From a virus: DNA of 40,051 nt. The stretch lies in IMG/VR virus record IMGVR_UViG_3300045988_160493; one strand, given 5' to 3'. How positions within the stretch are numbered: position 1 is the first letter of the stretch; every line of letters begins with the position of its first letter. The notes under the pieces were generated by a model. That model did no database searches and had not been told where the DNA came from. It worked only from the letters and a program-made list of their open reading frames with translations. Shown in pieces: positions 10,679-40,051 of this stretch. The translations under genes were made by a program, and so were the position numbers.

Positions 10679-11148
10679 GAATTATTTTAGACATCAATCC
10701 ACCAAAGAACACAGGGCAATCTGGCAAACGCTTGGGTTGTCCAAGAGGTCGAGCAATGATGTTCGAGACCAAAGAAAGCAAAGACACAAAGGCAATGTTT
10801 TATGCGTTGCTTTACAACAAAAAGCCCCAAACCCCCTTTTCGTGCCCCTTAATCTTTAAACTGTACTACTTCTTTCCCTATAACAGTACAGTAAAGACCA
10901 GTTTGAAGAAAAAGCACGCTATTATCGCAAAAACAACAAAACCCGATTATGACAACATTCCAAAGCAAATTCAGGACGTTATGACAAAGCTCGGCTTTTG
11001 GACTGACGACGCAGTAATTTTTAATGGAGGTTGCGAAAAGTATTTTGCGGAGTTTGGGAAGATTATCATTGAAATTACGCCGACAATGGCAGATTATGAC
11101 TACTCAATGATTTTTGACGAAGAATTTTTAACAAAAGAACAACTATAA
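10675..11148 (+). CDS. rusA: RusA-family Holliday junction resolvase
   Basis: KPDYDNIPKQIQDVMTKLGFWTDDAVIFNG core typical of RusA endodeoxyribonuclease. Confidence 0.7.
   Translation: MRIILDINPPKNTGQSGKRLGCPRGRAMMFETKESKDTKAMFYALLYNKKPQTPFSCPLIFKLYYFFPYNSTVKTSLKKKHAIIAKTTKPDYDNIPKQIQDVMTKLGFWTDDAVIFNGGCEKYFAEFGKIIIEITPTMADYDYSMIFDEEFLTKEQL
11130..11148 (+). repeat. 19-bp direct repeat copy 1 (AACAAAAGAACAACTATAA) = last codons + stop of rusA
   Basis: Exact identity with 11999-12017. Confidence 0.8.
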
Positions 11149-13500: not shown

Positions 13501-13518
13501 TTGTTCCACGTGGAACAA
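13501..13518 (-). terminator. perfect 18-bp palindrome TTGTTCCACGTGGAACAA; on the - strand followed by TTTTAGATTTT, so it acts as terminator of the leftward operon and/or a protein operator
   Basis: Seen directly; located 12 nt beyond stop of last - strand gene. Confidence 0.5.
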
Positions 13519-13529
13519 ATCCGTAAGCG

Positions 13530-13820
13530 TCATTTTTCAGCCTTTCCGAGAGGGCATTCCGACGGTCTGTATTTTGTTTGCACCACGCAATTTTGTGAGT
13601 GTGTGTGGTATTTAAGACAATTTGCGCAAAGCTTTTCGCGCGCTTCCTGTGCCTCATATTTGCGTTGACGCACACGCGGAAGATTGCAAATTATGGAAAA
13701 CGACAAGCCACCTATTGCGACAATCCAAAGGCGCAAATCGTCCTGCGTTATTGTCGCAGCCGTCGCCGCTCCGAAAGTTAAAACGTTGCCGCAAATATCG
13801 CCTATTTTACTAATTGTCAT
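13530..13820 (-). CDS. small membrane protein (96 aa) with Cys-rich C-terminus; lysis-cassette member
   Basis: Hydrophobic LWIVAIGGLSFSIICNL; C-terminal CANC...C...C. Confidence 0.4.
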   Translation of the reverse strand: MTISKIGDICGNVLTFGAATAATITQDDLRLWIVAIGGLSFSIICNLPRVRQRKYEAQEAREKLCANCLKYHTHSQNCVVQTKYRPSECPLGKAEK

Positions 13821-14044
13821 TGCCTCTCGATTTCCATTTCTAAATGATTTATAGTTTTAAGTGCGTCTCTGCACCACTCAGGAGCAGCAAGACGTGCTTG
13901 TTCAAAGTCCGTACGGTTTATAAGCCTTTCTGAATTATTAAGCTCGATATGCGCACAACCGCAAAAAAGGAAAGGAAGCAATAAGCTAATCATTCTCGCA
14001 GTCATTGCCCACTCCGTTATCAATGGCTTTATCAACTTTTGCAT
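13817..14044 (-). CDS. possible lipoprotein (o-spanin-like) overlapping the 3' end of the preceding membrane-protein gene in another frame
   Basis: Internal start would give MISLLLPFLFCGC (lipobox-like FCGC) followed by soluble domain with a Cys; the overlapped architecture resembles Rz/Rz1. Weak: few prolines. Confidence 0.25.
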   Translation of the reverse strand: MQKLIKPLITEWAMTARMISLLLPFLFCGCAHIELNNSERLINRTDFEQARLAAPEWCRDALKTINHLEMEIERQ

Positions 14045-33631: not shown

Positions 33632-35314
33632 TTATTCATTTGTATTCTCTTTATTCTCCTCTTCAACCAATAGGTCAGCCTTTGTCTTTCCCCTTATCGG
33701 ATTGTTTGTCGCTTTTGGCATTGGTCTGCCCATATTGTCTTTTTCCACAGAGAACAATTTTTCTTCGTCATCAGAAAGTTCAGGCGGTTCAGGGTCAAGC
33801 GCATTAAAGCCACTGTTGGGGTCGCCAATCAATCTAATGCGCTCTTCCTTGCGGTCAGTAATCTTTGCGGAAGTTCTCATTACAGAGGTTCTTGCGTCGA
33901 TTTCCCTAACCTTAGCCTTTGTCAACTCGTCGGGAGTGTCAATCGGATTAAATTCCACAATAATATTCTTTACTTTGCCAAATTCCGATTTTGTCATAAG
34001 CATATTATGGAATTTGATTATTTGCAAGTAGTCGTTCGACTGAATTGATTTCAAGTGTTGCTTGTAGTCGTTAAGCTCAAATGAGCCAGAAGAATTTAAA
34101 CCCTTAATTGCCAGTTTAAATAGCTTTTCTGCGGGAATTTTTGCGATAGCGCAAATTCTCTGCATACAAGCATTGATAACTTCCTCCAAGCCAGTAAGGG
34201 AAGTGTCCATTTGTGAGACTTCCGAGCCGATTTGTTTTACCCAAATGCCATAATTGCTATGCAATTCCGCCGTAGCGTCCAAAAGAGCGTTAACTTCTTG
34301 CGGATTTGCCATATAATTGCTCATTTCAGCGTCCGCAACGTAGCTTCTCTTCGTCAAAAGCAACAGCATAGCCTCATTCAACGCCTTTTCATAAGCATAA
34401 ACCGCTTCATAGATTTGCTGAACCAATGAAACACCGCCAAAGAAGTATGTAGGCTTTAAAAAGTCCGCCACATTTGAATGTATGAGCTTTATTACCCAGC
34501 TTCTGTGTATTCTTTTGTAGCCTTGCTTTCCTGTTGGGAATGAATACCAAGTCGGCTCGTAATAATGCTTGCTTGTTGGGTCTGTAAGGCTTTCTTGGTC
34601 GAAATCATAGGTAATCCAATATGGGTCAACCACTGTCAAACCTGTATAACTGTCTCTATCAATGTCATTTATGTCAAATTCCTTTTCCATATCAACTTCT
34701 TTGTTGAATGTAGGAATGACCAATGCCCACCCAAATTGAGCTTTGTTAACAAATGCTTTTACGCAAACGTCCTTTATGCCGTATTTGTCTTGGCTTCGCT
34801 CTACAAATTCTTCCAATTCGCCAACTTTTGCCTTTTTGCTCCCATTTGGATACATAATTTTATATCCAGAAGCCATAGCATCTATCGCAGGCATCGTGCA
34901 GGCATTGTCAACAATCGCATTTTGCCTTATGATTGCGCAATTTTGATAGCCAATGAAGATTTGCTTGTACTTTGATATGATTTCGTAAGACAAATCAGGC
35001 TTAAAAGCAGTTGCGGCATACTCGCACTCGGCGGCGTCCATTGAATAGCTTTCAATTTTGCCGTCTGGCATAACTCGAAAACCCTTAAAATTCTCGATTG
35101 TGCGCTGAATTATCTCTTTTGACCTTGTTGCCACGCTAAATTTCGGCTTTTTAACAACGTCGGCGATGTCTTTTATCATTTTAGACCACGCCAAAGCCTT
35201 AATTTCCCGCTTGGACAACTTTTCTTTCGCAAAATTCATTGCGTTATCTGAAATCTTCTGCGTCTTTACGGTTTTTTGCCTCTTTACGCTCTTTTCAATC
35301 TTTTCGCTTCCCAC
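33632..35314 (-). CDS. portal protein (putative; track start is GTG)
   Basis: 560 aa directly downstream of large terminase; aaagggg RBS before start. Confidence 0.55.
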   Translation of the reverse strand: MGSEKIEKSVKRQKTVKTQKISDNAMNFAKEKLSKREIKALAWSKMIKDIADVVKKPKFSVATRSKEIIQRTIENFKGFRVMPDGKIESYSMDAAECEYAATAFKPDLSYEIISKYKQIFIGYQNCAIIRQNAIVDNACTMPAIDAMASGYKIMYPNGSKKAKVGELEEFVERSQDKYGIKDVCVKAFVNKAQFGWALVIPTFNKEVDMEKEFDINDIDRDSYTGLTVVDPYWITYDFDQESLTDPTSKHYYEPTWYSFPTGKQGYKRIHRSWVIKLIHSNVADFLKPTYFFGGVSLVQQIYEAVYAYEKALNEAMLLLLTKRSYVADAEMSNYMANPQEVNALLDATAELHSNYGIWVKQIGSEVSQMDTSLTGLEEVINACMQRICAIAKIPAEKLFKLAIKGLNSSGSFELNDYKQHLKSIQSNDYLQIIKFHNMLMTKSEFGKVKNIIVEFNPIDTPDELTKAKVREIDARTSVMRTSAKITDRKEERIRLIGDPNSGFNALDPEPPELSDDEEKLFSVEKDNMGRPMPKATNNPIRGKTKADLLVEEENKENTNE

Positions 35315-35412: not shown

Positions 35413-38346
35413 TCAAAACATTCCTTTTTTTCCAAAAGCAATTTCTCCTGCTTGTGTCATCATATCGCATATATCGTCGTGTTTATGACTGCCGTCTCCG
35501 CACAATAATACCATTTCCGCAATGATTTCTTTGCTTCTTGGGTCGTTTTTATCGTTTGGCAACAGCACATTTCCCGCCTCCAAGTAAGGAAATAGCGAAT
35601 TGTTCCACTTTGTCATCTTGTCAAAGCCCTTATCTTTCACTGGAATGACCGAAACTCCGCCCTCTCGCCTCATTCTTTGTATCAATTCCATACCAGAAGC
35701 CTTATCTTCAATGTAAAATACGTTTGCAGGCAAGCCTCTCACGCCCCCACTCCACCTATTCTTAAAGGCAAAGAACTCTTTGAGCAAATCTACCGCTTCA
35801 ATCTTCTTGTGCAATAAATCTATAAGCCTTAAATCGTTCTTTTCGGTTATTGCCCACAATCCCACCGCCGTATAGTCATTCCATTCATTAGTTTTAAATG
35901 CGGTATCGGCAGTGAAGAACACTTTTTTGTACCTAACAGTGTCCAAAGGATTGTAAAACTTAAACCATTCCTCCTTTACAAGCTCGCCGCCCAAAACAAC
36001 AGGCGATTGTTGCATTTGAGCCGCAAAAATGTATGGAGATTGCTTTTTTTCTTTGAGCAAGACTTCTGTTGGGGATTTCCATTCCCAGTTGCTTTTTGGC
36101 GGATTTACATCTTCATTAAGCGCAGGAACGCGAATAATCTTCCAATCGTCGGCTTCATTCGCTTCAATATAGCCTACCAAGTCGTCAACAGCAAGCCTTT
36201 GCATAATTAGCACAATAGGCGTCTTTGAGGGATTGTTTAAACGCTTTTTAATGACCGCTTGGTAGTTATCCTCTACTTTCTTTTTCTCCGCTTCCGAATT
36301 AAAGAATTTAGCATTGAGAGGGTCGTCGATAATAAAAGCTCCTCCGAACCTATCACCGATTTTTCCACAATTATGCACAAAAACTCTTGACATTCCAACA
36401 AACAAGTTATTGACTGTTCTTAAAGTTAAACAATAACTGGGTTTATTATGAATATCATAGATAGCAAATATGTTCCTATTCCTCAATTTAAAGGATATTT
36501 CGTTTCCAGAGACGGAAGCGTTTATTCTTCTAAAACAAGAAAAGAGCTTCGCCCTTATCTTTCGCGTAAAGGCTACAAATGCGTTGACCTTTGCGTTTGT
36601 GGGAAAAGAGTTAAAACTCGTATCCACCAACTGGTTGCTTGGACATTTCTTGGAGCGCAACCTACTGGAATGGTAGTTAGACATCTTGACGGAAATGCAC
36701 TCAACAATTCTGTATCCAATCTTGCCTATGGAACACAATCCGATAATGAGCAAGATAGCATAAGACATTATGGACACCACGCCAGATACCACAAAATTAC
36801 GCCAGAACAAGCCAAAGAAATTGCGCAGGACAGACGCCCCTATAAACAGATTGCTAAGGATTATGGTCTTAATTTTCGATATGTAGCCGACATTAAGGCT
36901 GGAATTTATTGGGGTCGTATTACTGAGGGTCTCAGATTTCAAAGAAGCCGTAGTGTCGCGTGGAACAAAACGCAATTTTCTCCTAAGGATACTAAGTTTA
37001 TCTGCGACAAAAATAATTCTCGAAAAGATATAATAGAACGGTTTGGCATAAGCAAATCCGTTATTTCTCGCATCAGAAAGCAGAACAGAGTTGACGCTTA
37101 ATTCGTCGGCTCTTTTCTCGCCCTCCGTAGTGTGAAATATATGGTCGTTGGTGGCGTCTAAAACCTCGCCGTCCTCAAAGATTATGCGCTTGTATTGGGA
37201 AATGTCATTCTTGACGTAGCGTTCAATCTCTTCAAAGGAAATCTTCTCGCCGTCAAATGTCATTATTTTAACTTTCTTCTTTCCCTCTACAATGTCGCCA
37301 ATCTTTTCAACGCCATTTTCCGTCCACACAGGAGTATCTTTATCGAAACAGCCAAAACCTGTCATAGCACCCCCCATTGGAGAAGCCCTATAAGTGCCTT
37401 TCTCTTTCGTCTCCCACAATGCCTTTGCTTCGGTATTGCTGTTCATTTGAACGCCAAAGAGCTTTTGATAAAATGGGTGTCGAATTATATTCAAAATGTC
37501 GTCCGACATCTTGTTTGTTATGCGCTCTTCATAGCAAGTATAGATAAAATTGCAAGTGGAGTCTATCCCAAAGCACCACGAAATCCACATAATCATTAGA
37601 ATACTGTTGTGGGTAGGCTTTAATCTATTGCCAACGCAATAAACGCCGCCCTCAACTTGGATACAATTCCCAATTTTGCCAAAATCGCCACGCTCAACGC
37701 TTTCAAAGAAAATTTCTTTTTTATGGGCTTTTAAATCTCTTCTCTGCCTTGCAACATCATTGCTTATTTCTGGCAATAAGTATCTGTCGCGATAGAAACC
37801 TTTTTCAAGCATTTCTTTTGTCTCAATCGTCCTCTCTTTGCGCAAATGCCTATCATAAACAACCCATTCGTGATTTTCGTGGCAATAGATTTCGTCTCCG
37901 TCGGAAAATCTTACCTTGCAATTCGCAGGAGCTTTCTCGCTAACTGCCAGAACCTTAACAAATTTCCCGCTTGGACTTAACACATAATCCCCAACGACTA
38001 TTTCAGCGTGCGTTATCCAACCCCTCTTTGTAAGCACAGGTGTTTCGTCCGCTATAAGCTTCCCCCAGCGCGGAGGTATGCTAATAGCTAAATTCTTCCT
38101 TTCTGGATTGCCGTAAACAAATTCTTCCAAAGACTTTATGATTTCTTTGTGAAACCAGCAAGTGCGAAAGTAATCCTTGTATATCGCGCGATAAAAGAAT
38201 TGAATGTAAAACTCAAAATCGCTCTTTAACAACGCAGACGTGTAAGGCAACATCTCATCGCTAAGGTATTTGTCAAAATCAATGGTGTTGTTCTCCCCAT
38301 ACAACCCATTCCCATAATTAACCCTTGCTTTACTTTCCATACCCAA
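35413..38346 (-). CDS. terL: terminase large subunit precursor (977 aa) interrupted by two inteins
   Basis: Extein carries Walker A PPRWGK(S), Walker B-like AFIIDDP, coupling motif FAAQMQQSP, nuclease-domain acidic residues FFTADTAF, YIEDKASG, HDDICD; two Hint-domain insertions. Confidence 0.85.
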   Translation of the reverse strand: MGMESKARVNYGNGLYGENNTIDFDKYLSDEMLPYTSALLKSDFEFYIQFFYRAIYKDYFRTCWFHKEIIKSLEEFVYGNPERKNLAISIPPRWGKLIADETPVLTKRGWITHAEIVVGDYVLSPSGKFVKVLAVSEKAPANCKVRFSDGDEIYCHENHEWVVYDRHLRKERTIETKEMLEKGFYRDRYLLPEISNDVARQRRDLKAHKKEIFFESVERGDFGKIGNCIQVEGGVYCVGNRLKPTHNSILMIMWISWCFGIDSTCNFIYTCYEERITNKMSDDILNIIRHPFYQKLFGVQMNSNTEAKALWETKEKGTYRASPMGGAMTGFGCFDKDTPVWTENGVEKIGDIVEGKKKVKIMTFDGEKISFEEIERYVKNDISQYKRIIFEDGEVLDATNDHIFHTTEGEKRADELSVNSVLLSDARNNGFAYAKPFYYIFSRIIFVADKLSILRRKLRFVPRDTTASLKSETLSNTTPINSSLNVGYISKIKTIILSNLFIGASVLRNFFGLFWRNFVVSGVVSIMSYAILLIIGLCSIGKIGYRIVECISVKMSNYHSSRLRSKKCPSNQLVDTSFNSFPTNAKVNAFVAFTRKIRAKLFSCFRRINASVSGNEISFKLRNRNIFAIYDIHNKPSYCLTLRTVNNLFVGMSRVFVHNCGKIGDRFGGAFIIDDPLNAKFFNSEAEKKKVEDNYQAVIKKRLNNPSKTPIVLIMQRLAVDDLVGYIEANEADDWKIIRVPALNEDVNPPKSNWEWKSPTEVLLKEKKQSPYIFAAQMQQSPVVLGGELVKEEWFKFYNPLDTVRYKKVFFTADTAFKTNEWNDYTAVGLWAITEKNDLRLIDLLHKKIEAVDLLKEFFAFKNRWSGGVRGLPANVFYIEDKASGMELIQRMRREGGVSVIPVKDKGFDKMTKWNNSLFPYLEAGNVLLPNDKNDPRSKEIIAEMVLLCGDGSHKHDDICDMMTQAGEIAFGKKGMF
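36370..37350 (-). mobile_element. intein 2 (about 327 aa, TerL residues 333-659), canonical class 1, with its central region antisense to an HNH gene
   Basis: Block A CFDKDTPVWTENGVEKIGDIVEG, block B VLDATNDHIFHTTEGEKRADEL, block F/G IFAIYDIHN...FVGMSRVFVHN followed by +1 Cys (CGKIGDRF). Confidence 0.7.
36448..37101 (+). CDS. HNH homing endonuclease (NUMOD4 + HNH_3 type), on the strand opposite to terL, nested inside intein 2
   Basis: PQFKGYFVSRDGSVYS (NUMOD4-like), HQLVAWTFLG...VRHLDGNALNNSVSNLAYGTQSDN (HNH), C-terminal helix-turn-helix-like ISKSVISRIRK. Confidence 0.8.
   Translation: MNIIDSKYVPIPQFKGYFVSRDGSVYSSKTRKELRPYLSRKGYKCVDLCVCGKRVKTRIHQLVAWTFLGAQPTGMVVRHLDGNALNNSVSNLAYGTQSDNEQDSIRHYGHHARYHKITPEQAKEIAQDRRPYKQIAKDYGLNFRYVADIKAGIYWGRITEGLRFQRSRSVAWNKTQFSPKDTKFICDKNNSRKDIIERFGISKSVISRIRKQNRVDA
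37606..38058 (-). mobile_element. mini-intein 1 (about 151 aa, TerL residues ~97-247) inserted in the Walker A P-loop; class-3-like (no N-terminal Cys/Ser)
   Basis: Block A LIADETPVLTKRGW...VVGDYV, block B DEIYCHENHEW (Trp at B:12), block F GNCIQVEGG (Cys at F:4), block G KPTHN then +1 Ser. Confidence 0.6.
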
Positions 38347-38385
38347 ACTGTACTATACTGTACTATTCCATTAAAGATTGTTTTG

Positions 38386-39075
38386 CTATTCTTCGGTATC
38401 TATTCGCCGTGGAGTTTCTTCCACCACTTCCCCCTCGACTACTTCCTCTTCCTTGCGCCTTACGTCCTCAATAGCTCTCCCAAAGCTTTCTCGCAATTCC
38501 TTTAATTGCTCCATATTCAATGAGTGCTTGTGGTCAACAGTACCGCTGTGGTTCACCACAACGTTCTTTCCGTATTCTTCCTTGTTCAACCTCTCCAACA
38601 CCCATTTGCTATTGTCTATGTCCTTGCCCTCGATGACGCTCTTTGCCACATTCTCCGTAGCCCTCGCCACCAATTCTTCTCTCCACAAATTTATCCTCTC
38701 CCTCAGCAATGTGTACTTCTTGCACAACTTCTGGAATTTCCCCATAAGTATCCCCGCATAAGCGCATATCGCCTTGTCCCCCATTCTCAGCTTCGCACCA
38801 TACTGTATCTTCAAAAACAGCGGAACAGTCAAATACACATAATAAACACTATTCGACCTCTCTATCTCCACTATATCCTCGCTTATCTCCCTGAATACTT
38901 CCTTGTCTTCCTCCTCCAAGCTCTTAAAATCATTATTGCTCCTAAGGCGGTTATTATATTCGTCTATCCCTACTCTCAAATCCCGACATACCCTATCGCT
39001 CTTGCCGTAATCTATCAGTCGAGGATTTCCCCCAACTCCAATCTTTTCATTATCTTTGTCGCCCTTTTCTCCCAT
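38386..39075 (-). CDS. putative terminase small subunit (229 aa), first gene of leftward operon
   Basis: Position immediately upstream of terL; charged helical protein; aaaggaaa RBS. Confidence 0.35.
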   Translation of the reverse strand: MGEKGDKDNEKIGVGGNPRLIDYGKSDRVCRDLRVGIDEYNNRLRSNNDFKSLEEEDKEVFREISEDIVEIERSNSVYYVYLTVPLFLKIQYGAKLRMGDKAICAYAGILMGKFQKLCKKYTLLRERINLWREELVARATENVAKSVIEGKDIDNSKWVLERLNKEEYGKNVVVNHSGTVDHKHSLNMEQLKELRESFGRAIEDVRRKEEEVVEGEVVEETPRRIDTEE

Positions 39076-39306
39076 AAGTTTCCTTTCTTTCTCTCACTAC
39101 AACCACACCCACACCACCATTGTCAAGCCTTTTCTATCCCCTCTCCCCATAAATCCACCAAAAATCTCCATAACTCCCTCTCCCACAACACCTTATCCCC
39201 ACTCCCCCTCGCCTCCCTCACAAAAACACCATAATAGTACAGTACACACAGTGAATTTTATTTCCCTCTACACCAATCACTTCCGTAAAAACACACAACT
39301 TTGTTC

Positions 39307-39334
39307 TTGACACCACAAATTTTTTTTCTATAAT
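39307..39334 (+). promoter_or_regulatory. near-consensus sigma70-type promoter TTGACA-N16-TATAAT firing rightward
   Basis: TTGACA at 39307-39312, TATAAT at 39329-39334; followed by three stem-loops (39337-39357, 39359-39386, 39416-39434). Confidence 0.55.
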
Positions 39335-39738
39335 AACCACCGTCAGCAAAACGGTGGTGCAGTAGCTTCAACAAGAAGCTCACTGCTTGCCACAAGTTTT
39401 GGTAGGTGTGTTTAGTCAAAGCTCTCAGCTTTGATACTTTCTAACAACACACTACCACGCCTTAAATGAAAAACATAATTCTACCAACCCAACAACTCTC
39501 ACCTACCTCCCCCACACAGCACACCACCTCTTGCTTCCTTGCTCCCAACCACTCAACTCTACTATTCTGTTCTACACCAAAACAACCACTCAAATCATAA
39601 GTACGCACGCAAGCAACTTGCTAATCTCTACAAACTGCTTAGTATCAACTACTTCCGAAAAATTTTTATATATGCGAAGTACACATACCCCGCCCCCTCC
39701 TGCTTGCCGTTTACTGCAAAAAGCTATGGGGGGGGTAC

Positions 39739-39756
39739 TGTTCTACGTGGAACAAT
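39739..39756 (+). promoter_or_regulatory. second copy of the CACGTG-centred palindrome (TGTTCTACGTGGAACAAT), preceded by a G8 tract and a GC-rich hairpin
   Basis: Matches 13501-13518 at 16/17 positions. Confidence 0.4.
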
Positions 39757-39993
39757 TAAATTAAATATAAAGTGTGAGAAAGAGGCAAAGTATGTTGTTT
39801 TTGGCAATGCTATAATAAATAGAATTTATATAAACAATGAATTGAAAGGCGGTTGCAATAGATAAGCGCAAGGCAATAAGTCAAGCATAAAGTGAATAAA
39901 AAAAATATGCAAAAAATTCAAAAAATACGATTTTTTTCTTGCAATGTTGGAAAGAATATGCGAAGATATAAGCATAATCAAGAAAGGTAAGAT

Positions 39994-40051
39994 ATGAAAA
40001 GCATTAAACTAAAAACAGTTTTAGAAAACGTTGAGAGAGTGAGAAAAAATT
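39994..40051 (+). CDS. 5' part of a small ORF that continues across the window junction to position 159 (54 aa total)
   Basis: ATG at 39994 preceded by aaaggtaag RBS-like purine stretch; reading frame continues in phase into positions 1-159 because the last 55 nt equal the first 55 nt. Confidence 0.4.
   Translation, partial: MKSIKLKTVLENVERVRKN
39997..40051. repeat. 55-bp terminal overlap identical to positions 1-55 (circular-assembly / linearisation overlap rather than a biological repeat)
   Basis: Exact identity seen directly. Confidence 0.9.

Follow-up and report, generated by a model that had tools for sequence, protein, structure and literature searches.

The gap between the terminase and early genes of the window (the whole 40,051-nt stretch of DNA that was analysed) is best read as a single-copy gene for a putative structured RNA of about 95–120 nt, the founding case of what would be a new family limited to one small clade of uncultured human-gut phages. 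This is the best reading because promoter and structure are conserved together, paired positions change in a compensatory manner, folding favours the plus strand and no conserved open reading frame (ORF) is present, and we consider it likely that a real, transcribed and selected structured RNA is encoded here. An earlier note on this DNA had proposed a small RNA or a structured leader; its core, a transcribed structured RNA, is supported, but sequence alone cannot separate the two. For that choice we lean, with somewhat less than even confidence, towards a stand-alone non-coding RNA whose transcription would be ended by Rho.

Genomic setting, relatives and promoter

Bases 1–55 of the window repeat positions 39997–40051, and the window is thus a circularly closed assembly with a unit genome of about 39,996 bp. 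TerS proteins identical to that of the window are encoded on 24 contigs of about 40 kb each. On the plus strand, a block of early and replication genes extends from the ATG at 39994 round to 13335 and encodes, among others, a DnaD-like initiator, a DnaC-like loader, Sak and RusA; its first gene (53 aa) crosses the circle junction. The promoter and hairpins sit in the 918-nt divergent gap (39076–39993) between terS on the minus strand and the early gene at 39994 on the plus strand. The features discussed below are as follows.

33632–35314, minus strand: portal gene, a late gene.
35413–38346, minus strand: terL, a late gene.
38386–39075, minus strand: terS, a late gene (PHROG terminase small subunit).
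39226–39306, strand unspecified: conserved block upstream of the promoter, including TAGTACAG at 39235–39242 and a 17-nt direct-repeat copy at 39274–39290.
39307–39334, plus strand: sigma-70 consensus promoter TTGACA-N16-TATAAT, the sole 12/12 match in the genome.
39336–39358, strand unspecified: hairpin 1, the 8-bp inverted repeat ACCACCGT-N7-ACGGTGGT, lying across the predicted start.
39347–39401, plus strand: SL-A, a 55-nt rod, which is the lowest-energy structure in each of the three lineages when folding begins at the predicted start.
39359–39386: hairpin 2, an interrupted 11-bp stem with C39381 bulged, forming the tip of SL-A.
39402–39415, plus strand: 14-nt linker containing AGGUGUGU at 39404–39411, invariant in 5/5 sequences.
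39416–39434, plus strand: SL-B (hairpin 3), a perfect 8-bp stem UCAAAGCU/AGCUUUGA.
39441–39645, plus strand: C-rich, G-poor untranslated tract (C 37%, G 6%), poorly conserved.
39478–39486, minus strand: TGGTAGAAT, an extended −10-like motif and possible, speculative antisense promoter facing the RNA gene.
39646–39735, strand unspecified: distal module boundary, with the second copy of the 17-nt repeat, the block AAAAATTTTTATATATGCGAAG, a C-run and a G8-run.

Relatives were sought by a TerS protein search, which gave six clusters, and their contigs were compared. The element is present in L020 (TerS 95% identical), in L009 and L008 (81%) and in L017 (77%), as well as in L021, one further close relative found by DNA pattern in JGI metagenomes. 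The sister clade L010–L016 (TerS 48–51% identical) lacks the whole module, and a covariance model finds no copy there. This model (R1), built from five sequences, scores 87–132 bits on those five and finds no second copy in the window, leaving one copy per genome.

The earlier note had singled out TTGACA (39307–39312) and TATAAT (39329–39334), separated by a 16-nt spacer, as the best sigma70-like promoter in the window. Whole-window scans bear this out, the runners-up being three 11/12 sites; from base composition, about 0.05 perfect matches per genome would be expected by chance on both strands. Both hexamers and the 16-nt spacing are invariant in the window, L020, L021, L009 and L017, whereas the sequence of the spacer varies. 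The block immediately upstream is the best-conserved stretch of the gap (85–90% identity to L009 and L017, 99–100% to L020 and L021), and its conservation suggests that it is probably a protein-binding or regulatory region. The TAGTACAG motif that it contains occurs four times in the window against 0.41 expected: two copies lie 10 bp apart between terS and terL (38348–38365, minus strand), one at 39235–39242 (plus) and one at 10861 (minus). L009 (around 2230–2300), L017 and L021 carry 2–5 tandem copies to the right of the G-run. These repeats may be sites for TerS, a regulator or an initiator protein.

No real or conserved gene follows the promoter until the ATG at 39994, about 652 nt past the predicted transcription start. 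To this extent the earlier statement that no ORF follows for about 550 nt is right, but mechanical ORFs do occur on both strands, as expected of such G-poor sequence. None of the gap ORFs on either strand has a ribosome-binding site or is conserved in the relatives. We rejected a coding reading on these grounds: the plus-strand ORF at 39466–39600, the minus-strand ORFs and the genes called in L006 and L017 lack homology between lineages, and a GUG-initiated ORF after AAGGUG in L009 and L017 has no counterpart in the window, which has GUC in place of the start codon.

The left flank of the gap holds a further promoter-like element. A TTGACA on the terS strand (39122–39127, minus), about 47 nt ahead of the terS ATG, is kept in the window clade, its L010 counterpart being ATTGTCAA. 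No −10 element is recognisable after it; a late promoter that depends on an activator may use it as its −35. The neighbouring terL has two intein-like insertions relative to the intein-less 499-aa TerL of L010, the first after the Walker-A GK motif and the second after TGFG, with the end ...VFVHN/C. The second is about 220 aa longer than its L017 counterpart; an HNH_3/NUMOD4 endonuclease ORF (36448–37101, plus) occupies the opposite strand of the extra part, and the terL frame stays open across it.

The predicted RNA fold and its covariation

Sigma-70 promoters initiate about 7 nt past the −10 hexamer, and on this standard spacing transcription should start at about C39341 or G39342, within hairpin 1. 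The three hairpins lie where the earlier note had placed them and all of its coordinates are correct, but its drawing of hairpin 1 as an RNA hairpin is not supported. The arms CCACCG and CGGTGG (39337–39342 and 39352–39357) grow to the 8-bp repeat ACCACCGT/ACGGTGGT, and with a start at 39341/39342 the 5′ arm (39337–39342) would fall outside the RNA. This arm is thus probably untranscribed, and the 3′ arm pairs downstream to form the base of a rod; pairing of hairpin 1 and of the SL-A base are mutually exclusive. The inverted repeat is unique in the window, with 0.00 expected by chance, and no lineage shows a change in either arm; L009 has one extra loop nucleotide. Hairpin 1 may be an operator, have another DNA-level role or form only in other transcripts; a further candidate role for its palindrome is that of 3′ hairpin in an antisense RNA. 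We discarded the idea that it is one of several operator sites, as it is present in a single copy in the genome.

The segment 39335–39460 (126 nt) folds at −50.2 kcal/mol, compared with −28.3 ± 3.6 kcal/mol for shuffled sequences (z = −6.0; 0/200 shuffles as good). When folding begins at the predicted start, z is −4.3 in the window, −2.5 in L009 and −3.2 in L017, and the SL-A fold is obtained every time; RNAalifold and single-sequence folding of these three agree on it. The first paired base lies about 6 nt past the predicted +1. SL-A has a lower stem, CAAAAC/GUUUUG (39347–52/39396–401), and a middle stem, GUGGU/GCCAC (39354–58/39389–93), which contains an invariant U·G pair. Its lower 11 bp and internal loops are invariant, save for a basal C-G to U-A change in L009, and the tip varies freely. 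The DNA arms of hairpin 3, TCAAAGCT and AGCTTTGA (39416–39434), are followed by TACTTTCT. SL-B is prolonged in the window lineage by an outer stem (39401–39411/39447–39456); in L009 and L017 it reads UGAAAGC/GCUUUCA, with a C-G to G-C swap and loops of 12–14 nt. On these predictions the RNA is more likely to consist of the SL-A rod, the AGGUGUGU linker and SL-B than to contain hairpin 1 as first drawn.

The covariance check with relatives that the earlier note had called for finds that hairpins 2 and 3 keep their pairing through compensatory changes. At the base of the rod, C-G is replaced by U-A in the L009 lower stem (alignment columns 53/107, or 14/68 in a second alignment). At the tip, L009 and L017 differ by G-C to A-U and by a U·U mismatch that becomes G-C, and in the window lineage the SL-A tip is wholly replaced yet still paired. 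All substitutions between L009 and L017 fall in a loop, are compensated, repair a mismatch or affect the outermost tip pair. In a MAFFT alignment, 90.5% of cells were paired, against 31–45% with slid partners, and four pairs had changed on both sides; this undercounts the pairing, because MAFFT misregisters the 3′ arms of L009 and L017.

The covariation rests on about 4–5 events in three independent lineages, which is consistent but thin. Events are few because only three such lineages exist, and the large invariant stems give no test of pairing. These same limits are what speak for a reading in which the promoter alone is meaningful and the hairpins arose by chance or hitch-hiked, being conserved because the relatives are close. 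We find this scarcely credible. Identity to L009 and L017 is 100% in the promoter hexamers and 69–74% in the structured segment and drops to 48–54% in the adjoining spacer, while the element keeps its stems by double changes. The element is also a G-rich island (24% G) in G-depleted surroundings of 2.7–7% G, and fold z values lie between −2.5 and −6 in all lineages.

Strand asymmetry bears on a different alternative, in which an antisense partner is made. A minus-strand promoter at TGGTAGAAT (39486–39478), just past SL-B, would produce a countertranscript over the hairpins, hairpin 1 would be its 3′ hairpin, and the convergent switch would time the late operon or control the plus RNA, as in RNA I/RNA II or P22 sar. 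Such an arrangement would explain the conserved 5′ arm of hairpin 1 outside the plus RNA. A TAGAAT −10-like motif is found on the terS-sense strand past SL-B in each lineage, the AATTCTAC motif stands out as conserved in a spacer that has few such islands, and the minus strand folds significantly in the window and L017. Nonetheless, we judge a sense/antisense pair very improbable. The scan scored TAGAAT with an upstream hexamer on the terS-sense strand at 9/12 in L009 and L017 but left the window copy, which lacks a −35, unflagged, and the position of the motif differs among lineages. The minus-strand sequence after hairpin 1, UAUUAUAG or AAUUAUAC, is a poor U-tract. The plus-strand fold is more stable than the minus in every lineage, by 5–7 kcal/mol, with a minus-strand z of only −1.0 in L009; in L020, an A-to-G change gives a G·U pair in the outer stem that forms on the plus strand only.

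The downstream tract, the C/G runs and possible DNA-level roles

Past SL-B, the C/G ratio reaches 10–16 in 78-nt windows at 39441–39521. The composition of the tract is alike in L009 (G 7%) and L017 (G 3.6%) even though only 48–54% of positions are identical, and as RNA the tract (39441–39645) looks like a Rho loading site. G depletion also spans the untranscribed left flank and terS, so the rut-like tract is no adaptation to the RNA. The wider region at about 38300–39690 (1.3 kb; terS and the left part of the gap) has a GC skew of −0.4 to −0.9, with 2.7–7% G in its non-coding parts; other late genes have skews of −0.1 to −0.2.

Scans for terminator-like sites found no intrinsic terminator after SL-B in any lineage, the tail being UACUUUCU in the window and AGAACUUCC or AGAACAUC in relatives. 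The usual hallmark of an Hfq-type small RNA, a promoter combined with a U-tailed Rho-independent terminator, is therefore represented in all lineages by the promoter and not by the terminator. Further on, the C-run (39688–39697) and the G8-run (39728–39735) form a GC-rich hairpin, next to a palindrome at 39739–39754. The earlier note had suggested that a hairpin here, near 39700, could terminate a transcript of about 420 nt. We rejected it as an intrinsic terminator: it is followed by no U-tract, is no better than shuffled sequences in L009 and L017 and does not form in L010, where the second run is C.

The module lies between two direct repeats of 17 nt (family D7), at 39274–39290 and 39646–39662, whose sequences co-vary within each lineage. 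The clade without the RNA also has the conserved block and the runs, with a TATAAT 17 nt ahead of the C-run and C, not G, in the second run. Mosaicism among the lineages is seen to the right of the G-run: the window shares its palindrome with L010, whereas L009, L017 and L021 have TAGTACAG repeats. This near-identical palindrome of 16–18 bp, TTGTTCCACGTGGAACAA/TGTTCTACGTGGAACA, occurs at both ends of the early block (13501–13518 and 39739–39754), is kept in the distant L010 clade (around 2608–2625) and could have a role as an operator, in termination or in replication. Between the C10-like and G8 runs lies a conserved AAAAAGCTA. The C-run is precisely where two independent contigs, L016 and L007, stop; this could be a cohesive-end site or a mere homopolymer assembly break.

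These surroundings give some weight to a DNA-level role in a region for packaging or replication, bounded by terS and the C/G runs. On this view, hairpin 1 would serve as an operator, the stems would act as single-strand initiation or terminase-binding structures, or transcription from the promoter at 39307 (P39307) would activate or prime an origin, as ColE1 RNA II does. The cumulative GC-skew minimum lies at about 39700, at the C/G runs and about 360 nt past the start, beside the G8 run and a region of 25–29% GC. Iteron-like TAGTACAG copies are found right of the G-run in three relatives and once upstream of the promoter, the hairpin 1 palindrome spans the start with both arms invariant, and both the contig ends at the C-run and the persistence of block and runs in the RNA-less clade fit such a role. 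We nevertheless regard it as quite unlikely. A perfectly conserved consensus promoter abutting the structure favours an RNA product, and wobble pairs favour a plus-strand RNA. The extra nucleotide in the palindrome spacer of L009 would be unusual for a dimer operator, and the palindrome has no other copy in the genome. A C-rich, G-poor plus RNA disfavours stable R-loops until the G8 run is reached, and the sister clade replicates and packages without the module.

The likeness to ColE1 RNA II/RNA I extends to a promoter a few hundred nucleotides ahead of a putative origin (the skew minimum), 5′ stem-loops, a possible antisense promoter in or just past the 5′ domain and a distal G-run. The two systems differ in that the origin here is putative and the phage encodes DnaD-like and DnaC-like initiators of its own; moreover, the stretch of RNA that separates the hairpins from the G-run has little G, and the antisense promoter and its terminator are weak.

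Under the stand-alone reading that we favour, host sigma-70 polymerase would start at about 39341/39342, at the only perfect promoter in the genome. The RNA would fold into the SL-A rod (39347–39401), the AGGUGUGU linker and SL-B (39416–39434), and the polymerase would then enter the 200-nt C-rich tract, where Rho, assuming that the host has it, would stop the transcript. Exonucleases would presumably trim it back to SL-B. The module would thereby be an accessory, moron-like, constitutively made RNA gene, a reading suggested by its absence from the sister clade, its bounding repeats and the promoter-like sites that the early genes have of their own. Two features sit uneasily with this model: it leaves the invariant 5′ arm of hairpin 1 unexplained, and the promoter faces the early genes, which would fit a leader equally well.

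Stand-alone RNA or leader, and comparison with known RNAs

The main competitor is a put-like leader acting in cis. P39307 would be a major early promoter, and the nascent two-stem-loop RNA would stay on the polymerase, allowing passage through about 650 nt of untranslated sequence prone to Rho action, and through the C/G hairpin, as far as the early operon at 39994. Much about the layout is consistent with this: the strongest promoter of the genome faces the early genes with no intrinsic terminator between them in any lineage, structure with two stem-loop domains begins about 6 nt after the start, and the tract that follows is otherwise an ideal Rho substrate. The promoter scan of the window also finds no good −35/−10 promoter near the first early gene. 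Relatives, however, are differently equipped. Promoter-like sites lie within about 60–90 nt of the first early gene in L009 and L017 (10/12) and in the RNA-less L010 clade (10/12 with TG in L010), and a distal promoter is thus unneeded for early expression. The module is tied to the terS side of the mosaic junction at the G-run and not to the early genes, and if the C/G runs are a cos site, the promoter would face a DNA end until circularisation. We therefore prefer the stand-alone RNA, since early expression evidently needs no module, and hold the put-like leader to be possible but doubtful. The window itself has a perfect extended −10 without a −35, TGcTATAAT (39808–39816, plus), about 180 nt ahead of the first early gene; for the window lineage it is a candidate proximal promoter of the early genes.

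Put RNA suppresses intrinsic and Rho-dependent terminators through the zinc-binding domain of the RNA polymerase beta′ subunit. The putL site lies just downstream of PL and comprises two stem-loops in about 70 nt (PMC9378689). Both HK022 put and the present element are phage-encoded and have a strong sigma-70 promoter facing early genes directly upstream of the RNA (transcription being predicted here), two irregular stem-loops a few nucleotides after +1 and termination-prone sequence beyond. They differ in size and number, about 95 nt plus a 14-nt linker in one copy here against about 70 nt in two copies for put, and in that the early genes of our relatives have proximal promoters of their own; antitermination is only predicted here. 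Covariance model R1 finds nothing put-like in HK022, including its early region, the best hit (8.3 bits, E = 3) lying elsewhere in that genome. Rfam likewise gives no put match in the HK022 stretch between IS903 and gene O, which we take to be the place of PL/PR and the put sites. As HK022 itself yields no match, Rfam appears to be without a put model, and an Rfam negative for put is probably uninformative.

RNA-based antiterminators known by 2021 comprised only put, EAR and conAn2 (PMC8191782). Should the element act in the manner of put, as a processive antiterminator RNA that needs no protein, in what is a non-lambdoid phage of a gut bacterium, it would be a new class unrelated to these three; we think such a role unlikely. 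Like our element on the leader reading, the conAn2 regions of Gram-positive conjugative elements are intergenic, belong to a mobile element, act in cis against termination and contain a GC-rich segment and stem-loops; they span 260–600 bp and require the ConAn1 protein to act at a distance (PMC8191782). In this comparison by description, no ConAn1-like gene is evident beside our element.

Other short phage RNAs offer looser parallels. The element, a member of neither the put nor the lambda 6S/StxS family, shares with lambda 6S RNA and StxS the nature of a short, promoter-proximal non-coding phage RNA. Both of these arise from a strong constitutive promoter (pR′ for lambda 6S RNA; Stx phages for StxS) at which transcription soon stops, and the product can act in trans. 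They end at the intrinsic terminator tR′, in the Q circuit upstream of late genes; our element is followed by no such terminator, its promoter points towards early genes, and no protein resembling Q was recognised. P4 CI RNA and the c4 RNA of P1 and P7 are structured 5′-leader RNAs made from a constitutive promoter, and c4 is in Rfam; in P4, CI RNA is coupled to premature, partly Rho-dependent termination ahead of replication genes. The element departs from them in having no Rfam c4 match and no conserved complementarity between linker and downstream sequence, and no temperate or plasmid sign was seen.

Rfam 15 at gathering thresholds gave no match in the whole window, and at E ≤ 10 the sole match in 39000–40051 was a spurious minus-strand glmS (12.9 bits against a threshold of 37). 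Neither blastn of the gap against INPHARED phages nor blastn of the element against PLSDB plasmids returned a match, and the IMG/VR copy searched held no TerS relative and no match for three DNA patterns. GTDB genomes contained no TerS relative and hence no prophage or host; two RNA-pattern matches there were dismissed as chance occurrences within coding sequence. Large catalogues of candidate phage RNAs exist (PMC10690425, IMG/VR-based; PMC8040213). Judged from its sequence, the element very probably encodes a transcribed, structured RNA belonging to a family that is new with respect to the databases covered here and restricted to a few gut phages.

Several further identities were tried and set aside. 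A boxA/boxB (nut-like) site was suggested by CGCUCU in the hairpin 2 loop of L017 (CGCUCA in L009) and is absent from the window lineage. Likeness to a tracrRNA or CRISPR repeat (GUUUU...CAAAAC) is accompanied by no cas gene and no repeat array, and a riboswitch or attenuator leader would lack both a terminator and an adjoining ORF, the next gene being about 650 nt away.

Since no conserved target came to light, the RNA would most likely act through a bound protein and not through base-pairing. The phage contains no complement of AGGUGUGU elsewhere, nor one of CUUGCCACAAGUUUU, and duplexes between linker and spacer were matched by shuffled sequences in 27% of cases for the window and 77% for L009; only L017 stands out. 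If the RNA is real, the single best host-type promoter of the phage serves a non-coding RNA and not a protein, which suggests early, abundant action in takeover, anti-defence or control of the phage's own transcription. The non-coding content of gut phages, so far poorly charted, would gain a new RNA family, and the locus would provide a simple test case for how a transcript that lacks a terminator ends, or is protected, in strongly Rho-prone sequence.

One minor observation bears on the type of host. A small ORF with a lipobox (LFCGC) at 13817–14044 (minus) adjoins a small membrane-type ORF at 13530–13820. The two look like a spanin/holin pair, which hints at a diderm (Gram-negative-type) host.
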